Below, piece by piece: positions 16,747-27,430 of a stretch of 64,000 nt of DNA. This DNA comes from Verrucomicrobiia bacterium (GTDB lineage: Bacteria; Methylomirabilota; Methylomirabilia; Rokubacteriales; CSP1-6): assembly GCA_035495415.1 (NCBI GenBank), contig DATJFY010000071.1, forward strand, positions 1,257-65,256, read 5' to 3'. The position numbers and the translations under genes are program-made. The notes under the pieces are model-generated. The model was not told where the DNA came from, did no database searches, and was given only the letters and a program-made list of their open reading frames with translations. How positions within the stretch are numbered: position 1 is the stretch's first letter; every line of letters starts with the position of its first letter.

Positions 16747-17613
16747 ATGGGCTACGAGCGCCGCCGCAACCTCGTCATCCGTCCCGACGGCCGCCTCGTC
16801 AACGTCGCGCGGCCGCGCGGGCAGCTCTTCGTGTGCGCCAGTGGCTGCTGCTGCGGGCGCACCGAGGATGGCTTCGCCCCCGTCCCGACCGCGCTGTTCC
16901 ACGGCGAATGGGAGCGGCGGCGCCTTCGGAATCTCGTGCATCTCACCCTCGGCGGCTGCCTGGGGCCCTGCGCGCTCGCCAACGTCGCCCTGCTGCTGTT
17001 CGACGGCCAGGCGCAGTGGTTTCACTCGATGAATCGCGACGCGCTCGTCCTCGAGCTCTACGATCATGTGGAGCGGATGCTCGACGCGGACGGCGTGCTG
17101 GCCCCGCCGCCCGCCCTCGCCCCGTATCACTTCAGCGGCTCGGCGTGGCAGCCGCGGCCGGACGGGCTGCCCGTCGACGACCATCGCCCGCGGCGCCGGC
17201 CGTGCCCGTCCGAGCGTGGGAGCTCGAGCCTCGCCGAGCACACCTGCGCCGCCGGGCCCCCCGCGGACGAGTCCGGCGAGGGACGCGTCGAGCGGCTCAT
17301 CGCGGACATGAGCGGTGCGGCCGCGATGCCGCGCCGGAACGGTGAGCTGGTGTTTGCCGAGCCCTGGCAGGGGCGGGCATTCGGCATGGCGGTGGCGCTG
17401 TCCGAGAATGGCGCGTTCTCCTGGGAGGAGTTCCGTCAAGCGCTGATCGCGGAGATCGGCGTCGCCGAGCGCCGCGAGGGGCCTTTCGAGTATTACGAGG
17501 TGTGGCTCGCGACGTTCGAGCGGCTCCTTGCCACGAAGGGCCTCGTTTCCAGCGGCGAGCTCGACGAGACCGCATATCAGTTCGAGTTCGGCGAGCGCGA
17601 CGAGGTCTTCTGA
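16747..17613 (+). CDS. Nitrile hydratase accessory (activator) protein fused to an N-terminal Cys-rich thioredoxin-like-ferredoxin-type domain
   Basis: 288 aa. N-terminal part: GQLFVCASGCCCG...LTLGGCLGPCALANV. C-terminal part: ELVFAEPWQGRAFGMAVALSENGAFSWEEFRQALIAEI...YYEVWLATFERLL, resembling NHase beta-homolog accessory proteins. Confidence 0.75.
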   Translation: MGYERRRNLVIRPDGRLVNVARPRGQLFVCASGCCCGRTEDGFAPVPTALFHGEWERRRLRNLVHLTLGGCLGPCALANVALLLFDGQAQWFHSMNRDALVLELYDHVERMLDADGVLAPPPALAPYHFSGSAWQPRPDGLPVDDHRPRRRPCPSERGSSSLAEHTCAAGPPADESGEGRVERLIADMSGAAAMPRRNGELVFAEPWQGRAFGMAVALSENGAFSWEEFRQALIAEIGVAERREGPFEYYEVWLATFERLLATKGLVSSGELDETAYQFEFGERDEVF

Positions 17614-17733
17614 CGCGCGCCTCGCGGCCGTGTGGGCCGAGCAACAAAGCTGGAGGCCCAGGCAGCAGGGGCAGATTCTCCCCAACCTACGCTTGGCCTC
17701 GTGGACTCGCGCACTTGGCCGCGGGCGCCGCCG

Positions 17734-17749
17734 TGGCACCCCGCTTGCT
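17734..17749 (+). promoter_or_regulatory. Sigma-54 (-24/-12) promoter TGGCACCCCGCTTGCT
   Basis: Matches TGGCAC-N5-TTGCW with exact GG-to-GC spacing. Lies 49 nt upstream of a small ORF with a strong SD. Confidence 0.6.
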
Positions 17750-17797
17750 CCTCCTGGGGGCATGTGGCAGTCAACCGGAACCCCCAAGGAGGCCGTC

Positions 17798-17899
17798 ATG
17801 GCCAAGAGAATGAACGTCGCGAAGCTCTGCTGGACGGTGATGGCGCTGGGCGCGGTGATGTTCCTCACGCACTCGGCCATCCTCGCCTTCGCTCGCTAA
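17798..17899 (+). CDS. Small (33 aa) single-TM membrane protein
   Basis: MAKRMNVAKLCWTVMALGAVMFLTHSAILAFAR. SD AAGGAGG lies 7 nt upstream of the ATG. GC3-rich codons. Followed by an intrinsic terminator. Confidence 0.55.
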   Translation: MAKRMNVAKLCWTVMALGAVMFLTHSAILAFAR

Positions 17900-17943
17900 G
17901 ACCACTCCGGGTCGCGCCACCGCCGCGTGACCTGCGCTCGATA

Positions 17944-17989
17944 CCAGGCGCCGACCACTCGCCACAGAGTGGCGGCGCCTGGACGTTTT
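17944..17989 (+). terminator. Rho-independent terminator-like hairpin
   Basis: ~16-bp stem with one bulged A (CCAGGCGCCGACCACTC / GAGTGGCGGCGCCTGG), 6-nt loop, then ACGTTTTA. Confidence 0.6.
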
Positions 17990-18049
17990 ACGGCGCTGGA
18001 ACCCCGACAGCAACATTGGCAACTCCCTGGAATCGTTGGACGCCCTCTC

Positions 18050-18065
18050 TGGAACGCCACTTGCT
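18050..18065 (+). promoter_or_regulatory. Sigma-54 (-24/-12) promoter TGGAACGCCACTTGCT
   Basis: Correct GG-N10-GC spacing with TTGCT at -12. The motif ends 26 nt upstream of the kinase ATG at 18092. Confidence 0.5.
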
Positions 18066-18091
18066 GCCGATAGGTCGATAGGACAGCCTCC

Positions 18092-19552
18092 ATGCGTCTG
18101 GCGCCCAAGATCTTTCTCGTGTCGGTGCTGGCGATCCTGCTTCTCGGCGGGGTGTCGGCCTGGAGCATCGTCGCGGTGAGCCGGCTCGTCGAGGTGAACC
18201 GTGACATCGCCACCCGCGCGGTGCCGGCCATCGAGATCGCGAGCGGGCTGCCCGAGGCGTTCCGCCGCCTCGTGCGCCTGGAGGCCAAGTACCTCGTGCT
18301 GCGCGACCGCGCCTATGCCGACCTGTGGAACGAGCGGGCCACGCGTGTGGCAAGCGAGCTCGACCGGCTCGGGACCCTGCTCGTGACGCCCGAGGAGCTC
18401 ACGTGGCAGCAGAGCGCGGCGTCCGCCTTCGCGGCCTACCGCGAGCACGTGAGCCACGAGCGCGTGCTCGTGGGCCGGGGCGAGATCGAACGCGCCCAGC
18501 AGCTCTCGGAGCGCGCCGCCCGGGAGGCCGCCGAGCTGGCGGAGACGAGCGTGGTCAAGCTGTCCGCGGCGTCGAACGCGGGGCTCGGGCGCGCCCAGGC
18601 CGATGCCGCCGCCCTTGCCTCGCGCACCTGGACCACGGTGATCATCGCCTTCATCGCGAGCCTCGCGGTGGCGATCATCGCCACCGCCATCGTGGCGGTC
18701 CGCATGACGCGCTCGCTGCGCCAGCTCTCCACCGCCACGCGCCAGCTCGCCGAGGGCGCTGCGACGGGGCCGCTGCCCATCGACCGCGGCGACGAGATCG
18801 GCGACGTCGGTCGGGCGTTCAACCGCATGGCGGAGCGGCTGAAGGAGGTCGACGCGCTCAAAGAGGATTTCTTCTCGCAGATCTCGCACGATCTCCGTAA
18901 CCCGTTGACGGGCATGCGGGGAGCCGCCCAGCTCCTGATTCAGGGCCGGACCGGGGGCGCCCTCCCGCCCCGCCAGCTCCAGATGGTCCGGGTCATCGAC
19001 GACAGCGCCGGGCGCATGCTGGCGATGGTCAACCAGATCCTCGAGTTCACCCGACTCCGCGCGCACTTGATGCCGCTCGAGCGGAAGCCGGTGGACCTCG
19101 CCAAGCTCGTGGCGCGCGCGCTCGACGAGTTCCATCCGCAGGCGGAAGCGGCCGGGGTCGCGCTCTCCACCACCACGAGCGGCGCCGACTTCACCGTGTA
19201 CGGTGACGAGGCGGGCCTCATGCGCGTGGTCACGAACCTGGTGGGGAACTCGCTCAAGTTCACGCCGCGGGCGGGGTCGGTGACCGCCCAGGTGCGGGAC
19301 TGGGACGCAGAGGTCGAGCTGCGGCTGACCGACACCGGCGAGGGAATTCCGGCGGACGCCCTGCCGCGCATCTTCGACGCCTACCGACAGGCGCACGCGG
19401 GCCGCAAGGGCTCGGGGCTCGGCCTCGCGGTGGTGAAGGGCTTCGTCGAAGCACACGGCGGCCGCGTCGAGGTCGAGTCCGATCTGGGCAAGGGAACCAC
19501 GTTCGTGGTGACGCTGCCGCGCTCCCTGCCGCACCTGGAAGCCGCCGCGTGA
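18092..19552 (+). CDS. Sensor histidine kinase (TM, helical periplasmic domain, TM, HAMP, HisKA, HATPase)
   Basis: 486 aa. Two TM segments. HAMP (RQLSTATRQLAEG...GDEIGDVGRAFNRMAERL). H-box FFSQISHDLRNPL. G-boxes DTGEGIP and GSGLGLAVVKG. Confidence 0.9.
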   Translation: MRLAPKIFLVSVLAILLLGGVSAWSIVAVSRLVEVNRDIATRAVPAIEIASGLPEAFRRLVRLEAKYLVLRDRAYADLWNERATRVASELDRLGTLLVTPEELTWQQSAASAFAAYREHVSHERVLVGRGEIERAQQLSERAAREAAELAETSVVKLSAASNAGLGRAQADAAALASRTWTTVIIAFIASLAVAIIATAIVAVRMTRSLRQLSTATRQLAEGAATGPLPIDRGDEIGDVGRAFNRMAERLKEVDALKEDFFSQISHDLRNPLTGMRGAAQLLIQGRTGGALPPRQLQMVRVIDDSAGRMLAMVNQILEFTRLRAHLMPLERKPVDLAKLVARALDEFHPQAEAAGVALSTTTSGADFTVYGDEAGLMRVVTNLVGNSLKFTPRAGSVTAQVRDWDAEVELRLTDTGEGIPADALPRIFDAYRQAHAGRKGSGLGLAVVKGFVEAHGGRVEVESDLGKGTTFVVTLPRSLPHLEAAA

Positions 19553-20100
19553 GCCGCGCGCGTCTCGGGATCGCGCTTGCGCTGATCGTCACCGCCGGCG
19601 GGGGCTGCGCGAGCTGGGCCGCACGCCCGGCCTGGGTGCCCGTCGTTTCCTGGGAGCCCCGCCCGACTCCGACCGCCGCCCCGCCCCCCGCCGCGACCGC
19701 GAGCGTACCCGCGCCTTCACCCGTGCCCCGAGCCGAGCCGGCGCGGCTCGTCGAACGCGCCGGCGAGCTGGCCCATGACGGCCGGCCGGTCGCCGCGCGT
19801 GACCTCTACGAACGCGTGGTGCGCGAGTACCCCGGCGATCCCGCGCGCGCGGCCGCGCTCTACGGCCTCGGGCAGCTCCAGTGCGACCCGGCCAGCCCCT
19901 TCCGCGACTATCGCGCCGGCTACACCACCTTCGGCCGCCTCCTCGCCGAGCATCCGCGCAGCACCTTCGAGGCGGACGCCCGGCTGTGGCGCGCCACGCT
20001 GAGCGAGCTGCTCGCGCGCGACGAGGAGATGGCCCGCATGCGCAGCCAGCTCCAGCGCCTCAAGCGGATCGAGGTGGAGCTGGAGCGGTCGCCGCGCTGA
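19549..20100 (+). CDS. Lipoprotein with TPR/YbgF-like helical domain and C-terminal coiled coil
   Basis: GTG start overlaps the kinase stop (GTGA). Lipobox LIVTAGGGC. Pro-rich linker, then a helical repeat region. Confidence 0.7.
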   Translation: MSRARLGIALALIVTAGGGCASWAARPAWVPVVSWEPRPTPTAAPPPAATASVPAPSPVPRAEPARLVERAGELAHDGRPVAARDLYERVVREYPGDPARAAALYGLGQLQCDPASPFRDYRAGYTTFGRLLAEHPRSTFEADARLWRATLSELLARDEEMARMRSQLQRLKRIEVELERSPR

Positions 20101-20107
20101 TCGCCCG

Positions 20108-20764
20108 CTATCGGAGGGAGTGCGCGAAGGCCAGGTAGCGGAAGCTCACTTCCTCCGCGTAACGATCCCCCGGGCGGTTCTCGGTGGCCTTGTCGGGATT
20201 GCGGTTGTACGCGCGAAGGGCGGTCGCGTTGAACCCGTAGCGCGTGATCTGCCAGCGGAGGTAGGCGGTGCCCACCCGCACGTTGAACTTGGGATCGGCC
20301 AGTGAGCCCAGCGAGGCGTAGGTGCCGTTCTTGCCCATCTCGGGCGGGGTGTAGTCGAGGCCCAGCCGCTTCACCACGAGCTCGGCGGTGGAGGGCATCA
20401 GCTGCATCAGCCCGATCTCGCCCGACTTGCCGATCGCGCCGGGGTTGAACTGGCTCTCCTTGTCGGCGATGGCCAGGATGATGCGGAAATCGATGTCGGC
20501 GGCCTGGCTCACCTCCAGCAGCGTGTGCGGAAAGCCGGCGAACTCCCGGATGGTCGCCTGCGGGTTGCGCTCCACGATGAGCGCGGTGATCTTCTGCTCC
20601 ATCTCGGCCCGGCCCTGATCGGCGCGTTCTTGAGCGAGGCGGCCCTGCGTGAGGCCGCCCATATAGAAGAGCGGGACGGCGGCGACGAGAAGCACAACGC
20701 CCAGCGCCTGCAGCCACGTCCCGCGAGTCTCGACGAACCGACGAGCCAGCGCGATAGCCTGCAT
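20108..20764 (-). CDS. Membrane-anchored lytic transglycosylase (SLT domain)
   Basis: AIADKESQFNP ... GEIGLMQLMPSTA ... AYNRNP. AGGAGG lies 10 nt upstream of the ATG at 20764. The longer ORF start at 20800 lacks an SD. Confidence 0.85.
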   Translation of the reverse strand: MQAIALARRFVETRGTWLQALGVVLLVAAVPLFYMGGLTQGRLAQERADQGRAEMEQKITALIVERNPQATIREFAGFPHTLLEVSQAADIDFRIILAIADKESQFNPGAIGKSGEIGLMQLMPSTAELVVKRLGLDYTPPEMGKNGTYASLGSLADPKFNVRVGTAYLRWQITRYGFNATALRAYNRNPDKATENRPGDRYAEEVSFRYLAFAHSLR

Positions 20765-20839
20765 GATCACGAGTCCTCCTGCCGACTGGATTTTGTTCAT
20801 GGTGTGCGCGGTGTTACCGAGCTGTCAGTCCAGTAGAGT

Positions 20840-20855
20840 GGCAAGCGGTGTGCCA
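20840..20855 (-). promoter_or_regulatory. Sigma-54 (-24/-12) promoter TGGCACACCGCTTGCC, minus strand
   Basis: Perfect TGGCAC-N5-TTGC. Lies ~75 nt upstream of the SLT start. The site is near-palindromic, so the + strand reads TGGCAAGCGGTGTGCC at 20839..20854. Confidence 0.55.
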
Positions 20856-21159
20856 CGGAGAGGCCGCGGCTGGGAGGCTGGAAGAATCACGAGATGACAG
20901 TGCGCAACCATTTCGCGCTCGCGAGTTGTCAGGATCTCCGACAGCGTCACGCAGTGTCAGAGCCCACTAAAGGTTCTATGGCGCTCAGGCCACGAGGGCA
21001 AACCGGCGGCGACCGAGGCCTTCACATTCGGGGGGGACTCTGCTCGCGTCGGCGCGTCGGCATCCTCCGCGGAAACGATGCGCTCAATCAATTCACGCGC
21101 TTGACACTGACGGGGTGGGGCGGCCACTCGATCCGGCGGGGATTGAGCAGCCGGGTACA

Positions 21160-22002: not shown

Positions 22003-23403
<1,401 letters not shown>

Positions 23404-23622: not shown

Positions 23623-23638
23623 TGGCGGCCGAATTGCT
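23623..23638 (+). promoter_or_regulatory. Sigma-54 (-24/-12) promoter TGGCGGCCGAATTGCT
   Basis: Correct GG-N10-GC spacing with TTGCT at -12. Lies ~80 nt upstream of the small ORF at 23717. Confidence 0.55.
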
Positions 23639-23716
23639 CTATTCTCCCCCTCGGGCAGTGGATCTCATTGGGAGGTCTCCTCGCCCGGCGACTCATTCCT
23701 CATGGGAGGGAACGCA

Positions 23717-23854
23717 ATGACGAAGCTCGTGGCCGTGCTGGCGATTCTCGCGTCGTTCCTGCTGGTGGCGCCGGTGATCGAGTCGGGTACGTCGGAGTCC
23801 AGCCAGATCTTCCTGGCCATCGGTAATGCGGACGGCGGCGCCGGAGGGGACTAG
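23717..23854 (+). CDS. Small (45 aa) protein with N-terminal hydrophobic segment (signal peptide or TM) and acidic/Gly tail
   Basis: MTKLVAVLAILASFLLVAPVIESGTSESSQIFLAIGNADGGAGGD. SD GGGAGGG lies 6 nt upstream. GC3-rich codons. Confidence 0.55.
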   Translation: MTKLVAVLAILASFLLVAPVIESGTSESSQIFLAIGNADGGAGGD

Positions 23855-25523
23855 TCTCACGCCACCTCGTCGGGGAGCGGCCGGCCATTCCCCTCGGGCC
23901 TCCGCACGAGCTTGGAGGGGCTTCGGCCCCTCTCTGCTCTTGATGACCCTCGTGCTGCTGGCCGGGCCCGCGGCGCCGCCCGCGCACGCCGAGGAGCCGA
24001 CCGAGAACGCGGCTCGTGAAGTCGGCGTTTACCGGAGACCGCTCGGGAACGATCCCGCCACGCTCGATCCGGTCCGGGTCAGCGATCTCTACGGGCGCTC
24101 CGTCACCGAGCAAATCTTCGACGGCCTGGTCCAGTTCGACCAGACGCTGACGATCACCCCCGCCCTCGCCCGCTTCTGGCGGGCCTCGCGGGACGGGCTC
24201 GTGTGGACGTTAACGCTACGCCAGGGCATCAAGTTTCACCATGGCCGCGAGCTCACGTCCGACGACGTCGTGTTCTCGCTCAGCAGGATTCTGGACCCGA
24301 AGTCTCAGAGCGGCGCGGCCGATCTCTTCTCGAGCATCGAGGGCGCCCAGGAATTTCGCGAGGGGCGAGCGCCCACGGTGAGCGGGCTCCAGGCGCCCGA
24401 CCGCTACACGGTGCGGGTGATATTGCGCGAGGCGTCCACGCCCTTCGTGTCCGTGCTGGCCCTCGGGCACGCCAAGATCGTCCCGCGCGACATGGTCGAG
24501 AAGCAGGGCGCCGCCTTCGGCCAGCATCCGGTGGGGACAGGTCCGTTCAAGTTCGTCCGGTGGGAGCGCCGCAAGGAGATCGTGCTGTCGGCGAATCGGG
24601 ACTACTTCGAGGGCCCGCCCCGGCTCGCCCGGGTCATCTATCGTATCTTTCCCGGCGAGCTCAGCGACGTGATGTGCCGGGAGTTCGACCGGGGCGAGCT
24701 GGACGAGAGCCCGGTTCCCCCCGTCTGCCGGAACAAGGTCAATGACGCGCGGTATCAGTACGTCCGCCGCGTCACGTTCAGCGTCCGCTTCTACGGTCTG
24801 CAGACCCGCATGAAGCCGATGAGCGATGTCCGGGTGCGCCGCGCCATCGCCCACGCCATCGATCGGAACGCGCTTCTCGACGACGTGTTCACCGGCCGCT
24901 TTCAGCCCGCGCCCGGAATCTTGCCGCTGGGACTGCCGGGCTACAATCCGAACTTGAAGCCGCTCGGCTACGCCCCCGCGCGGGCGCGCGAGCTCCTTCG
25001 CGAGGCGGGACATCCGGACGGGCGGGGACTGCCGACCATCGTGTTCTGGTCGGGGGCGAAGAGCGAGCGGCTCGAGCGCGAGCTGGACACGGTGTCGCGG
25101 CAGCTCGGCGCCGTCGGCATCCGGACCGAAACGCGCTACGAGACCGATTGGCCGACCTTCTCGCGAGAGGTGAACGAGGGCAAGCTGCCAATGTTCATCT
25201 ACGCGTGGTACGCCGACGTGCCCGACCCCGACAACTTCCTCTTCCGGCTCTTCTACTCGCGGAGCCCGCGCAACCTCACCGGGTACTCCAACGCGATGGT
25301 GGACGGCCTGCTGATCCAGGCGCGGGGCGAGAAGGAGCTGGCCCGACGGATGGATCTGTACCGGCGGGCCGAGCAGACGATCCTGAACGACGCACCCATC
25401 ATCCCCATCTGGCACTACCCGTTCGAACGGCTCTTCCAGGGCTACGTGCGCAGCGTGGAGGTGAACGGGCTCGGCGATCCCTATATCCCACTGAGGAAGA
25501 TATGGTTGGAGGAGCGGCGATGA
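23826..25523 (+). CDS. Family-5 (peptide/nickel-type) periplasmic substrate-binding protein, no adjacent permease
   Basis: SBP5 pattern (DPATLDPVRVSDLY, FDGLVQFD, GIKFHHGRELTSDDVVFS, GTGPFKFVRWE, ANRDYFEG, VRRAIAHAID). Signal-like LLLMTLVLLAGPAAPPAHA. Start is uncertain: 23826 overlaps the small ORF; the alternative is 23943. Confidence 0.85.
   Translation: MRTAAPEGTSLTPPRRGAAGHSPRASARAWRGFGPSLLLMTLVLLAGPAAPPAHAEEPTENAAREVGVYRRPLGNDPATLDPVRVSDLYGRSVTEQIFDGLVQFDQTLTITPALARFWRASRDGLVWTLTLRQGIKFHHGRELTSDDVVFSLSRILDPKSQSGAADLFSSIEGAQEFREGRAPTVSGLQAPDRYTVRVILREASTPFVSVLALGHAKIVPRDMVEKQGAAFGQHPVGTGPFKFVRWERRKEIVLSANRDYFEGPPRLARVIYRIFPGELSDVMCREFDRGELDESPVPPVCRNKVNDARYQYVRRVTFSVRFYGLQTRMKPMSDVRVRRAIAHAIDRNALLDDVFTGRFQPAPGILPLGLPGYNPNLKPLGYAPARARELLREAGHPDGRGLPTIVFWSGAKSERLERELDTVSRQLGAVGIRTETRYETDWPTFSREVNEGKLPMFIYAWYADVPDPDNFLFRLFYSRSPRNLTGYSNAMVDGLLIQARGEKELARRMDLYRRAEQTILNDAPIIPIWHYPFERLFQGYVRSVEVNGLGDPYIPLRKIWLEERR
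23915..23932 (+). other. GC-rich stem-loop GAGGGGC-TTCG-GCCCCTC (UUCG tetraloop)
   Basis: Perfect 7-bp stem, followed by TCTGCTCTT. Lies 60 nt after the small-ORF stop. It would be inside the SBP CDS if that gene starts at 23826. Confidence 0.35.
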
Positions 25524-27430
25524 GCGCGCGCGCCCTCTTCGACCGGGTGGGCCGCCGCTTCAACTCTCTCCACGCCCGGCTGCTCGCCGGCACCATCCTC
25601 ATCCTCCTCGTGGTGATGGCCGGGGTGATCGCGGTCGTGGAGTACCGGCAGCGCGTGGCCATCATCGGCGAAGTGCTCCGGCGGGGCGAGGTCATCGTGC
25701 GCGACCTCGCGGCGATCTCGTCCACCCCGCTGCTCCTCTACAACTTCACCGCCCTCGAGCAGAACGTGGATCGCGTGCGGGGGAACACCGACGTGGTCTA
25801 CGCGGTGGTGCTGGACGCCGACGGGAAGGTGGCGGCCCACAGCCGCCGCCCCGACCTGGTGGGGAGCGTGCTCGCCACGCCCCTCGATCGGGCCGCCGCC
25901 GCGAGCGAGACCCTGCTCGTCCAGGAGAGCCAGAGCCGAGGCGCCGCGGTGTACGACTTCGCGGTGCCGGTCCTGATCGGCGCCCAGCGCTGGGGCACCG
26001 CGCGCGTCGGGCTCTCCAAGAAGCGGATGGAGGCGCAGATCCGCCGGACCCGTATCGAGCTGGCGGGCCTGACCGTGGTGACGCTGCTCGTGAGCGGTCT
26101 CGCCGCCGCGCTCGTCGCCCGCGCCATCTCCCGGCCGGTGCGGGAGCTGGCGGCGGGCGCGGAGGCCATCGCGCGGGGTGACCTCGACCAGCGCATCGCG
26201 GCGACCGGGTTCGGGGAGATCGGCCAGCTCGCGGTGGTCTTCAATCACATGACGGCGCAGCTCCTGCAGCAGCGCCACGATCTCGAGGCCACCCACGAGT
26301 CGCTCCGGGAGCGCTTCGAAGAGGTCGCCGACCTCAAGAGCTACACCGACAGCATCCTGGCCTCGATCACGAGCGGCATCGTGACCCTCGACCTCGATGG
26401 CCGGGTCGCCACCGTGAACCCCGCCGCCGAGCTCCTCACCGGCCTCTTCGCCGGCGAGATCGTGGGCCGGTACTGCACCGAGGTCTTCGCCCACACCCCC
26501 GGGGTCTCGGAGATCCTCATGGAGGCGCTCGCGAGCCGGGCGGGACTGGGCCACGTGTCCCTGAGCCTGCGGCGCCGGAACGGTACCGCGGTACCGGTGG
26601 AGATGAGCACGGCCCCGCTGCGTGGGCTGGAGGGGAAGGACCTCGGCGTGGTCGGGGTGTTCCGCGACGTGAGCCATGTTCGCGAGCTGGAGGGCCAGCT
26701 GCGCCGCTCCGACCGGCTCGCCGCCCTCGGCACCCTCGCCGCCGGGCTCGCCCACGAGATCAAGAATCCCCTCGCGTCACTGCGCACCTTCACGCGGATC
26801 ATCCCCCGCAAGTTCGAGGACGCCCGCTTCCGGGAGACGTTCATGCGGGTCGTGCCCCACGAGCTCGAGCGGATCAACGGCATCGTGGAGCAGCTTCTCG
26901 AGCTGGCCCGGCCGATCCGACTCCGGCCGGCTCCCCTCACCGTGCCGGGCGTGCTGGACCGGGTCCTCGAGCTGTACGCCAACGAGCTCGAGGCCAAGGG
27001 GATCGTGGTGACGCGGGAGTACGCGCGCGAGGTGCCGTCGATCACCGCCGATCCCGAGCGTCTCTACGAGGCGTTCGTCAACCTGGTCAGCAACGCCATC
27101 GCCGCCATGGCGCCGGGGGGTCGGCTCACCGTGCGCACCGCCTGGCACCGCCCGGGAGAGCCCGTGGGGCGCGGCACGGCGGGGCGCCGTGTGCGCGTCG
27201 AGATCGAGGACACGGGCAGCGGCATCTCAGCCTCGGAGGCCGACAAAGTGTTCGATCCCTTCTTCACCACCAAAGCGGAGGGCACGGGCCTCGGCCTCGC
27301 CCTCACGCACAAGATCATCGAGGATCACGGCGGAAGCATCGGCTTCCGGAGCGCGCCGGGCGTGGGCACGGTGTTCACCGTGCTCCTGCCCTTGGCCTCC
27401 GAGCGCGCCGCCGGAGAGCGCGATGTCTAG
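25520..27430 (+). CDS. Sensor histidine kinase, NtrB/AtoS-like (TM, periplasmic domain, TM, HAMP, PAS, HisKA, HATPase)
   Basis: 636 aa. ATG overlaps the SBP stop (ATGA). H-box LAAGLAHEIKNPLASL. PAS (ILASITSGIVTLDLDGRVATVNPAAELLTG). DTGSGI, GTGLGLALTHKII. Confidence 0.9.
   Translation: MSARALFDRVGRRFNSLHARLLAGTILILLVVMAGVIAVVEYRQRVAIIGEVLRRGEVIVRDLAAISSTPLLLYNFTALEQNVDRVRGNTDVVYAVVLDADGKVAAHSRRPDLVGSVLATPLDRAAAASETLLVQESQSRGAAVYDFAVPVLIGAQRWGTARVGLSKKRMEAQIRRTRIELAGLTVVTLLVSGLAAALVARAISRPVRELAAGAEAIARGDLDQRIAATGFGEIGQLAVVFNHMTAQLLQQRHDLEATHESLRERFEEVADLKSYTDSILASITSGIVTLDLDGRVATVNPAAELLTGLFAGEIVGRYCTEVFAHTPGVSEILMEALASRAGLGHVSLSLRRRNGTAVPVEMSTAPLRGLEGKDLGVVGVFRDVSHVRELEGQLRRSDRLAALGTLAAGLAHEIKNPLASLRTFTRIIPRKFEDARFRETFMRVVPHELERINGIVEQLLELARPIRLRPAPLTVPGVLDRVLELYANELEAKGIVVTREYAREVPSITADPERLYEAFVNLVSNAIAAMAPGGRLTVRTAWHRPGEPVGRGTAGRRVRVEIEDTGSGISASEADKVFDPFFTTKAEGTGLGLALTHKIIEDHGGSIGFRSAPGVGTVFTVLLPLASERAAGERDV

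Follow-up and report, generated by a model that had tools for sequence, protein, structure and literature searches.

We analyzed a stretch of 64,000 nucleotides (hereafter the window; contig DATJFY010000071.1, assembly GCA_035495415.1) from the genome of an uncultured soil Rokubacteria, in which a short unit lies immediately upstream of a sensor histidine kinase gene. It is composed of a sigma-54 promoter (P1), a strong ribosome-binding site, an open reading frame (ORF) of 33 residues with one predicted transmembrane helix, and two hairpins. We compared 24 independent loci, namely that of the window's genome, those of six of its seven congeners within a single genus, and 17 soil-metagenome contigs. 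All of them keep the promoter, the ribosome-binding site, the ATG and both hairpins, and 23 of them the frame, so that the unit exceeds what chance would produce. It is best explained as a sigma-54-driven gene for a membrane peptide, with the adjacent kinase as its most likely partner, a reading to which we give an overall probability of roughly 0.4. Judged from its conservation, the small gene itself is very probably real and translated, and there is a good probability that it depends on sigma-54.

A conserved sigma-54 promoter and a leader of constant length

As criterion for sigma-54 promoters we used a GG (-24) and a GC (-12) exactly 10 nt apart, within the extended consensus TGGCAC-N5-TTGCW. 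P1, TGGCACCCCGCTTGCT (17734-17749, plus strand), matches the full consensus, with the GG at 17735-17736 and the GC at 17747-17748. It is the sole match to TGGCAC-N5-TTGCW within the window, where 0.03 would be expected from shuffles (any match was found in 3 of 100 shuffled windows). Its TGGCA(C/T)-N5-TTGC is unvarying across the 24 loci, as are the GGAGG of the ribosome-binding site and the ATG, which bears out the -24/-12 element with exact spacing that an original prediction, made from the letters of the window, had placed here.

Transcription is predicted to start near 17760, a sigma-54 transcript being expected to begin about 12 nt past the GC. The 5' leader (17761-17797, plus strand) carries the ribosome-binding site AAGGAGG at 17786-17792, with a spacing of 5 nt to the ATG at 17798. 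AAGGAGG lies 52 nt past the first and 37 nt past the last base of the P1 motif, so that the motif itself was rightly recognized in the original prediction, but not the distance of 49 nt given for it. The length of the leader is constant, with 36 nt from a conserved CATG (17761-17764) to the start codon and no indels in the 20 aligned loci. This CATG coincides with the predicted transcription start, and in all lineages its ATG lies in frame, 12 codons upstream of the start codon. Gene callers picked the upstream in-frame ATG as start for four of the five database proteins of the family. We rejected the corresponding 45-residue protein starting at ATG 17762, as the 12 additional codons lack a coding pattern (14, 26 and 19 changes at the three codon positions); this start is also disfavored by the GTG found there in two loci and by the lack of a ribosome-binding site before that ATG.

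Upstream of P1, the only conserved element is GAGCAACAA, near -115. An inverted repeat (TGGGCC ... GGCCCA, 17633-17659) located 3' of the nitrile hydratase accessory gene has GAGCAACAAAG as its loop. This loop, at about -115 relative to the predicted start, is present in a single copy in the genome, and no other element upstream of P1 is strongly conserved. The repeat could be an operon-end hairpin or a protein-binding site.

A predicted membrane peptide under coding constraint

The small ORF (MAKRMNVAKLCWTVMALGAVMFLTHSAILAFAR*, 17798-17899, plus strand, stop codon TAA at 17897-17899) encodes 33 residues with a basic N-terminus and one transmembrane helix, and ends in AFAR. The translation is identical to that in the original prediction, and AlphaFold2 run on the family alignment returns a single helix over residues 7-31 (mean pLDDT 85), in agreement with the proposed topology. 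The product is thus predicted to be a small single-pass inner-membrane protein. It also resembles a stand-alone signal peptide, with its basic n-region, a hydrophobic core of 14 residues, a polar THS and, preceding the final residue, a conserved A-F-A.

The exception among the 24 reading frames is found in locus L055 (2980-3078), where one base is deleted in codon 8 but promoter, hairpins and the rest are unaffected; either the assembly is wrong at this point or the ORF has recently become a pseudogene. The sole length change of the ORF among the loci is a 3-nt indel (one codon), whereas the flanking spacers are rich in indels, and the stop codon varies (TAA, TAG, TGA) at a fixed position. Parsimony counts on a tree built from 20 distinct loci give 18, 9 and 33 changes at the first, second and third positions of core codons 9-33 (p = 6e-4) and 22, 23 and 121 for the N-terminus of the kinase, the core evolving at its first and second positions at the rates of that N-terminus. 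The reading frame is thus conserved among related genomes, the touchstone set in the original prediction, and shows coding periodicity.

The core of the ORF may also be constrained beyond its protein product. It is near-invariant at synonymous sites between 17822 and 17860, and its third positions change at about half the rate of those of the kinase. Where a residue is invariant, the codon is invariant too in 7 of 13 columns, versus 7 of 65 in the kinase. This pattern points to an extra function at the nucleotide level (RNA or DNA) or to a strong codon preference.

Two hairpins follow the stop codon

Directly 3' of the stop codon, a first hairpin (17908-17934, plus strand, -16.9 kcal/mol), additional to the one described in the original prediction, is found in every locus at -13 to -25 kcal/mol. 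Its sequence is fully turned over with the structure retained, including compensatory pairs. Hairpin 2, followed by ACG and TTTT (17944-17989, plus strand; stem-loop 17944-17982), has 10+6 = 16 pairs with one bulged A and a folding energy of -35.8 kcal/mol (z = -7.2; 0 of 200 shuffles fold as well). It is likewise kept in every locus, at 0.82 changes per site versus 2.6-2.9 in the adjacent spacers; several outer pairs display compensatory changes, and the inner stem is swapped for a different pairing sequence in other lineages. Its pairing cells contain 30 G.U wobbles versus 2 A.C, and such an abundance of G.U with rare A.C indicates selection as plus-strand RNA and not as a DNA palindrome.

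A canonical intrinsic terminator was defined as a G+C-rich stem-loop with at least 5 T among 8 nt starting 0-2 nt from the stem. Hairpin 2 has such a stem-loop but not the T-run: its T tract consists of TTTT (17986-17989), 3 nt past the stem, and of 2-4 T in relatives. A consensus terminator scan called none in 17000-18600, neither hairpin being retained, and canonical terminators show no enrichment anywhere in the window. Of the 16-bp hairpin with T tract initially reported as a terminator, the hairpin thus stands, the T tract is weak, and the canonical terminator is not recovered. Given this short, displaced and variable T tract, we label hairpin 2 a transcript-end or stabilizing element, and it likely forms the 3' end or stabilizer of the transcript. 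It is not a dispersed repeat, as it occurs only once in the genome, and a known RNA family was rejected since no Rfam match reached threshold.

The unit is specific to one genus

All seven congener genomes match the query and six of them carry the whole unit; the remaining one (G003, 67% complete) has a match of ~30 bases and no peptide match. Six-frame profile searches revealed no such peptide in the rest of the order (183 genomes searched in all), nor outside its genus in the 251 genomes (68 genera) of the phylum. Among 1.84 billion representative proteins, a profile search retrieved five, all of them close orthologues, and the peptide has no match in Pfam, NCBIfam or PDB. A candidate paralogue in the same genome (weak match on contig C42, E = 0.001) was rejected, as it is out of frame inside a longer gene. 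By these searches, the peptide family is confined to one genus of uncultured soil Rokubacteria.

The genes on both sides of the unit are more widespread. The upstream side is occupied by nitrile hydratase genes (beta, alpha and accessory), and orthologues of the accessory gene (57-73% identity) are found in at least eight other genera. In 8 of 8 loci from other genera there is neither ORF nor sigma-54 site downstream, and we therefore rejected a role of the peptide as a nitrile hydratase component (e.g., a metal-uptake subunit). On the downstream side, homologues of the kinase (about 50% identity) are present in the majority of the family's genera, without the peptide. A peptide diverged beyond recognition near these kinases was rejected too, because no small hydrophobic ORF or P1 is found there. 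In sequence terms, the unit has been added, in this genus alone, where the hydratase cluster meets the kinase operon.

The small ORF lies within an island of sigma-54 promoters

The genome has one rpoN gene (contig C104) and about 26 full-length activators (PF00158), one of which is encoded 4 kb away from the unit. It contains 30 perfect sigma-54 consensus sites versus about 2.6 expected (extrapolated from the window shuffles), a ~11-fold excess, and most of these sites sit 25-110 nt before a ribosome-binding site and start codon, often of secreted or membrane proteins.

Three further sites of this kind accompany P1 in its neighborhood. P2 (TGGAACGCCACTTGCT, 18050-18065, plus strand) is a sigma-54-type promoter located 26 nt before the kinase ATG, and its TGG-N8-TTGCT is unvarying in 20 aligned loci despite variable surrounding bases. 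Between hairpin 2 and P2 lies a conserved TTGGCAA element (18016-18022, plus strand; 0-1 changes per site versus 3-8 in the spacer), which may be a protein-binding site. The kinase leader derived from P2 is predicted to be ~15 nt long in the window; as the distance from P2 to the ATG varies, it is very short in some relatives (a few nt and no ribosome-binding site, e.g., in L039), where the kinase mRNA started at P2 would thus be nearly leaderless.

P3 (TGGCACACCGCTTGCC, 20855-20840, minus strand; one mismatch to the full consensus) precedes the lytic transglycosylase gene and is kept in 7 of 7 related loci checked, being identical in six and TGGCATACCACTTGCC (two base changes) in L039. Upstream of it (20840-20960, minus strand), conserved TGTC-type repeats such as TGTCGGAGATCCTGACA resemble an activator binding site, and the related GGTGTCGG is found upstream of the promoter at 23623. 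The latter, P4 (TGGCGGCCGAATTGCT), is a sigma-54-type site before a 45-codon ORF, MTKLVAVLAILASFLLVAPVIESGTSESSQIFLAIGNADGGAGGD (region 23623-23855), which heads an operon of a binding protein, a kinase and a hybrid kinase; the P4 site and the start of this ORF are also present in L039. The conservation of P2 and P3, together with the NtrC-type activator nearby, suggests that the P1 unit belongs to a local sigma-54 regulon.

The kinase adjoining the unit (18092-19552, plus strand, ATG at 18092) has two transmembrane segments, an extracytoplasmic domain and HAMP, HisKA and HATPase domains (Pfam), with an H-box reading ISHDLRNPL. The position of the unit immediately upstream of a sensor kinase, as originally noted, is a genus-wide feature: gene order around the unit, including the synteny of small ORF and kinase, is kept across the genus. 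The kinase stop is overlapped (GTGA) by a TPR lipoprotein-like gene (19549-20100, plus strand) with weak TPR, BamD and YbgF matches. It is followed by the convergent gene for a lytic transglycosylase with SLT domain (20108-20800, minus strand), a gene for a secreted protein with an H-x-D ... H-x-H motif, and the NtrC-family response regulator and sigma-54 activator (22003-23403, plus strand; Pfam REC, AAA+ and HTH_8; NCBIfam AtoC/NtrC/ZraR-like), which is 86-91% identical within the genus. Further downstream come, in this order, a family-5 binding protein, a Cache-HAMP-PAS kinase (25523-27430) and a hybrid kinase.

The kinase encoded at 25523-27430 has the H-box LAHEIKNPL and its best NCBIfam models are AtoS (7e-101) and ZraS (3e-69). 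Those of the adjacent kinase are WalK, CreC, PnpS and PhoR (E = 1e-52 to 1e-45), AtoS and ZraS scoring far lower. From the comparison of H-boxes and NCBIfam models, the kinase at 25523-27430 is a likelier partner of the activator than the adjacent one. The latter, having its own conserved P2 and a WalK/PhoR-type H-box, is probably a target of sigma-54 and not the sensor.

In other genera, the pair of kinase and TPR genes is also kept (G140, G125, G115), and among the kinases there only that of G140 has a sigma-54-like site before the kinase (or kinase-TPR pair). In seven loci (L093, L095-L100), a homologue of the kinase is clustered with a stand-alone receiver, a second kinase and an NtrC-type activator, which suggests a branched relay feeding a sigma-54 activator. 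The G140 site and the seven activator-bearing clusters together repeatedly link this kinase family to sigma-54 activators.

A possible connector acting on the adjacent kinase

From these elements we propose the following scenario. RNA polymerase with sigma-54 would bind P1 and an NtrC-type activator would open the complex, giving rise to a transcript of about 225 nt starting near 17760. The strong ribosome-binding site would drive translation from 17798, and the hairpins at 17908-17934 and 17944-17982 would close, and probably stabilize, the message. The unit would be part of a local, envelope-related regulon arranged around one activator gene, comprising also the kinase-lipoprotein operon (P2), the transglycosylase gene (P3) and the operon of peptide, binding protein and kinases (P4). 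Once inserted into the membrane, the peptide would have almost no residues outside of it, and would thus have to rely on helix-helix contacts with a partner in the membrane. The best candidate would be the co-induced adjacent kinase, which the peptide could modulate as a connector or by feedback, as MgrB, SafA or SamT do, although we consider it less likely than not that this kinase is its actual target.

Several observations weigh against this proposal. The regions upstream of P1-P4, compared by conserved k-mers, share no common activator site, and control of P1 by the activator at 22003-23403 is for this reason something we infer; the genome offers about 26 activators as possible regulators of P1. 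A simple closed loop from kinase to activator to P1 is weakened by the comparison of H-boxes and NCBIfam models, and an MgrB-style loop of this closed kind is unsupported. Orthologues of the kinase are found in other genera without the peptide, which is thus dispensable for the kinase. Being neighbors within one genus says little about a functional link: with a gene found there only, and always in the same place, synteny cannot separate a link to the kinase from links to other neighbors, and tests of co-evolution and synteny are weak when all relatives stem from one genus. At the level of the protein, pN/pS is about 0.46 for the small ORF and 0.38 for its core (0.28 for the kinase), values of 0.4-0.5 indicating no more than moderate constraint, and codons 2-8 at the N-terminus show no coding pattern.

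A more elaborate version of the proposal, which we regard as rather unlikely in its entirety, would see in the unit a recent, genus-specific connector: the AtoS/ZraS-type kinase and the NtrC-type regulator would switch on, via tandem promoters, both an orphan WalK/PhoR-type kinase and a membrane-only peptide that sets the activity of this kinase at its transmembrane helices. The message would have a second function at the RNA level, marked by the synonymous constraint at 17822-17860 and by the sequence-conserved hairpin 2, and with the 45-residue unit behind P4 the locus would constitute a peptide-centered sigma-54 signaling island in Rokubacteria.

Alternative roles for the unit

The strongest competitor, which we deem possible, is that the peptide is a sigma-54-induced envelope effector acting not on the kinase but on another membrane target (the transglycosylase or peptidase machinery, a transporter) or on the bilayer. 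PspG, AcrZ and KdpF are models for this type of action. PspG has about 80 residues and two membrane segments, its activator PspF is not known to carry a receiver domain, and no adjacent kinase gene is known; it is not homologous to the peptide described here. The local sigma-54 targets include envelope genes (the SLT transglycosylase behind P3, the TPR lipoprotein) and the secreted protein with the H-x-D ... H-x-H motif is encoded nearby, while many sigma-54 sites of the genome precede small secreted or membrane proteins and the orthologous kinases function elsewhere without the peptide. There is also a precedent in pspG, which encodes a small inner-membrane protein, is transcribed on its own, depends on sigma-54 and an activator, and is induced by envelope stress (PMC4987338). 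Yet, the peptide has no homology to known effectors, the tight tandem of P1, ORF, hairpins, P2 and kinase is found in every locus, and P4 provides a second unit of peptide and kinase, so that this pairing recurs in the island.

The synonymous constraint raises the question whether the RNA is the main product. The ~225-nt transcript would then be a sigma-54-dependent regulatory RNA, maybe a dual-function one resembling SgrS/SgrT, whose core pairs with target mRNAs, the peptide being secondary. Promoter, short transcript and terminal hairpin fit the anatomy of sigma-54-driven small RNAs, and such a role would be in line with the halved rate at the synonymous sites of 17822-17860, with the excess of invariant codons (7/13 versus 7/65 in the kinase) and with the conservation of hairpin 2 in sequence, beyond its structure. 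But the coding features (unvarying ribosome-binding site and ATG, an indel that is a multiple of three, fixed stop position, second codon positions slowest) are those of a protein gene, Rfam gave no match, and the fold of the whole transcript is ordinary (z = -1.4). The synonymous constraint could as well stem from codon preference in a highly expressed short gene, and we find this alternative improbable.

Less probable again is an attenuator-like arrangement, in which the ORF would be a leader peptide whose translation controls hairpin 2 and read-through from P1 into the kinase operon. The ORF does lie upstream of the kinase with two hairpins in between, the unvarying GGCGCTGG at 17843-17850, in the ORF core, can form base pairs with CCAGGCGCC, the 5' arm of hairpin 2, and in several relatives the leader between P2 and the kinase is very short and has no ribosome-binding site. 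However, the kinase possesses its own conserved promoter 3' of the hairpins, and the alternative pairing of 8 bp would have to compete with the local 16-bp stem at -35.8 kcal/mol. The peptide sequence is moreover conserved and displays no regulatory codon runs, and because the helix would not yet have left the ribosome tunnel when translation terminates, the ORF could not monitor membrane insertion in the way of MifM or SecM.

We consider very unlikely the idea that the ORF is untranslated and the conserved DNA is promoter, enhancer and hairpin sequence for the kinase operon: chance open frames are frequent at the ~70% G+C of the window, hairpin 2 is found 94-133 nt before the start predicted for P2, in the usual zone of activator sites, and the ORF core is conserved at all three codon positions, but the ATG and a perfect ribosome-binding site placed 5 nt before it are unvarying, the coding periodicity is significant, the lone length change of the ORF keeps the frame amid indel-rich spacers, and the G.U bias reflects selection on the hairpin 2 RNA, not on a DNA palindrome.

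Relation to known systems

The layout of the locus is closest to that of the zra genes. ZraP is an accessory repressor of ZraS-ZraR, and both zraP and zraSR are under sigma-54 promoters (PMC4987338). As here, a small accessory gene adjoins a kinase operon, each behind its own sigma-54 promoter, in an envelope-related regulon run by an NtrC-family regulator, and ZraP feeds back on its system (PMC4987338). This precedent, and that of pspG (PMC4987338), show that the novelty originally claimed for the regulatory arrangement was overstated. The similarity stops at this regulatory layout: ZraP, of about 140 residues, acts in the periplasm as a soluble zinc-binding chaperone, whereas the product here is a predicted membrane helix of 33 residues with no sequence similarity to it and no Pfam match, and does not belong to the ZraP/CpxP/Spy class. 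In addition, the zra promoters are divergent and those described here in tandem, and zra kinase and regulator share an operon, whereas the adjacent kinase of our locus has no regulator beside it and an H-box unlike that of an NtrC partner.

With regard to its product, the unit is reminiscent of the small membrane proteins that act on sensor kinases. MgrB has 47 residues (PMC2789325) and SamT (YdgU), which binds RstB, 27 (PMC13425233); SafA (for PhoQ) and MzrA (for EnvZ) are connectors between systems (PMC8534201). Like the peptide of our locus, all are very small single-pass membrane proteins; they are two-component-induced, bind kinases and change their output (PMC2789325, PMC13425233, PMC8534201). 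Since SamT modulates a kinase with 27 residues, a peptide on the scale of 33 residues can do so, and a kinase-modulating role following the logic of MgrB, SafA and SamT is plausible by analogy. Unlike the gene predicted to depend on P1, none of the four is known to be sigma-54 dependent, and the peptide shows no homology to any of them (no match in Pfam, NCBIfam or PDB). MgrB, SafA and MzrA moreover use periplasmic residues, whereas the peptide here extends about one residue beyond its helix.

A last parallel is offered by CbrX: it sits within the membrane domain of the kinase CbrA, and the regulator paired with CbrA, CbrB, is a sigma-54 activator (PMC13022988). There too, the gene of a small membrane peptide lies immediately upstream of a sensor kinase gene (PMC13022988). 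CbrX is however a two-helix hairpin of 58 residues, as opposed to a single helix and 33 residues, and, unlike its gene, the peptide gene here forms a transcription unit of its own, set apart from the kinase by hairpins and a second promoter. Taken on its sequence features, the peptide would represent an orphan family of stress-regulon small membrane proteins, new as a family but known in kind.

Small membrane proteins are usually missed by annotation and have remained almost unstudied outside model bacteria; the present one is backed by conservation and stems from an uncultured soil phylum, and the class of its promoter provides a clean on/off handle for expression tests. It is part of a compact island that assembles four sigma-54 promoters, three kinases, two peptide genes and cell-wall enzymes, and the locus shows how a micro-gene can emerge, in one genus, next to a kinase operon that is older and under sigma-54 control. 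Should the peptide indeed tune the kinase, the control of kinases by membrane peptides would extend beyond enterobacteria and be tied to sigma-54 regulons.

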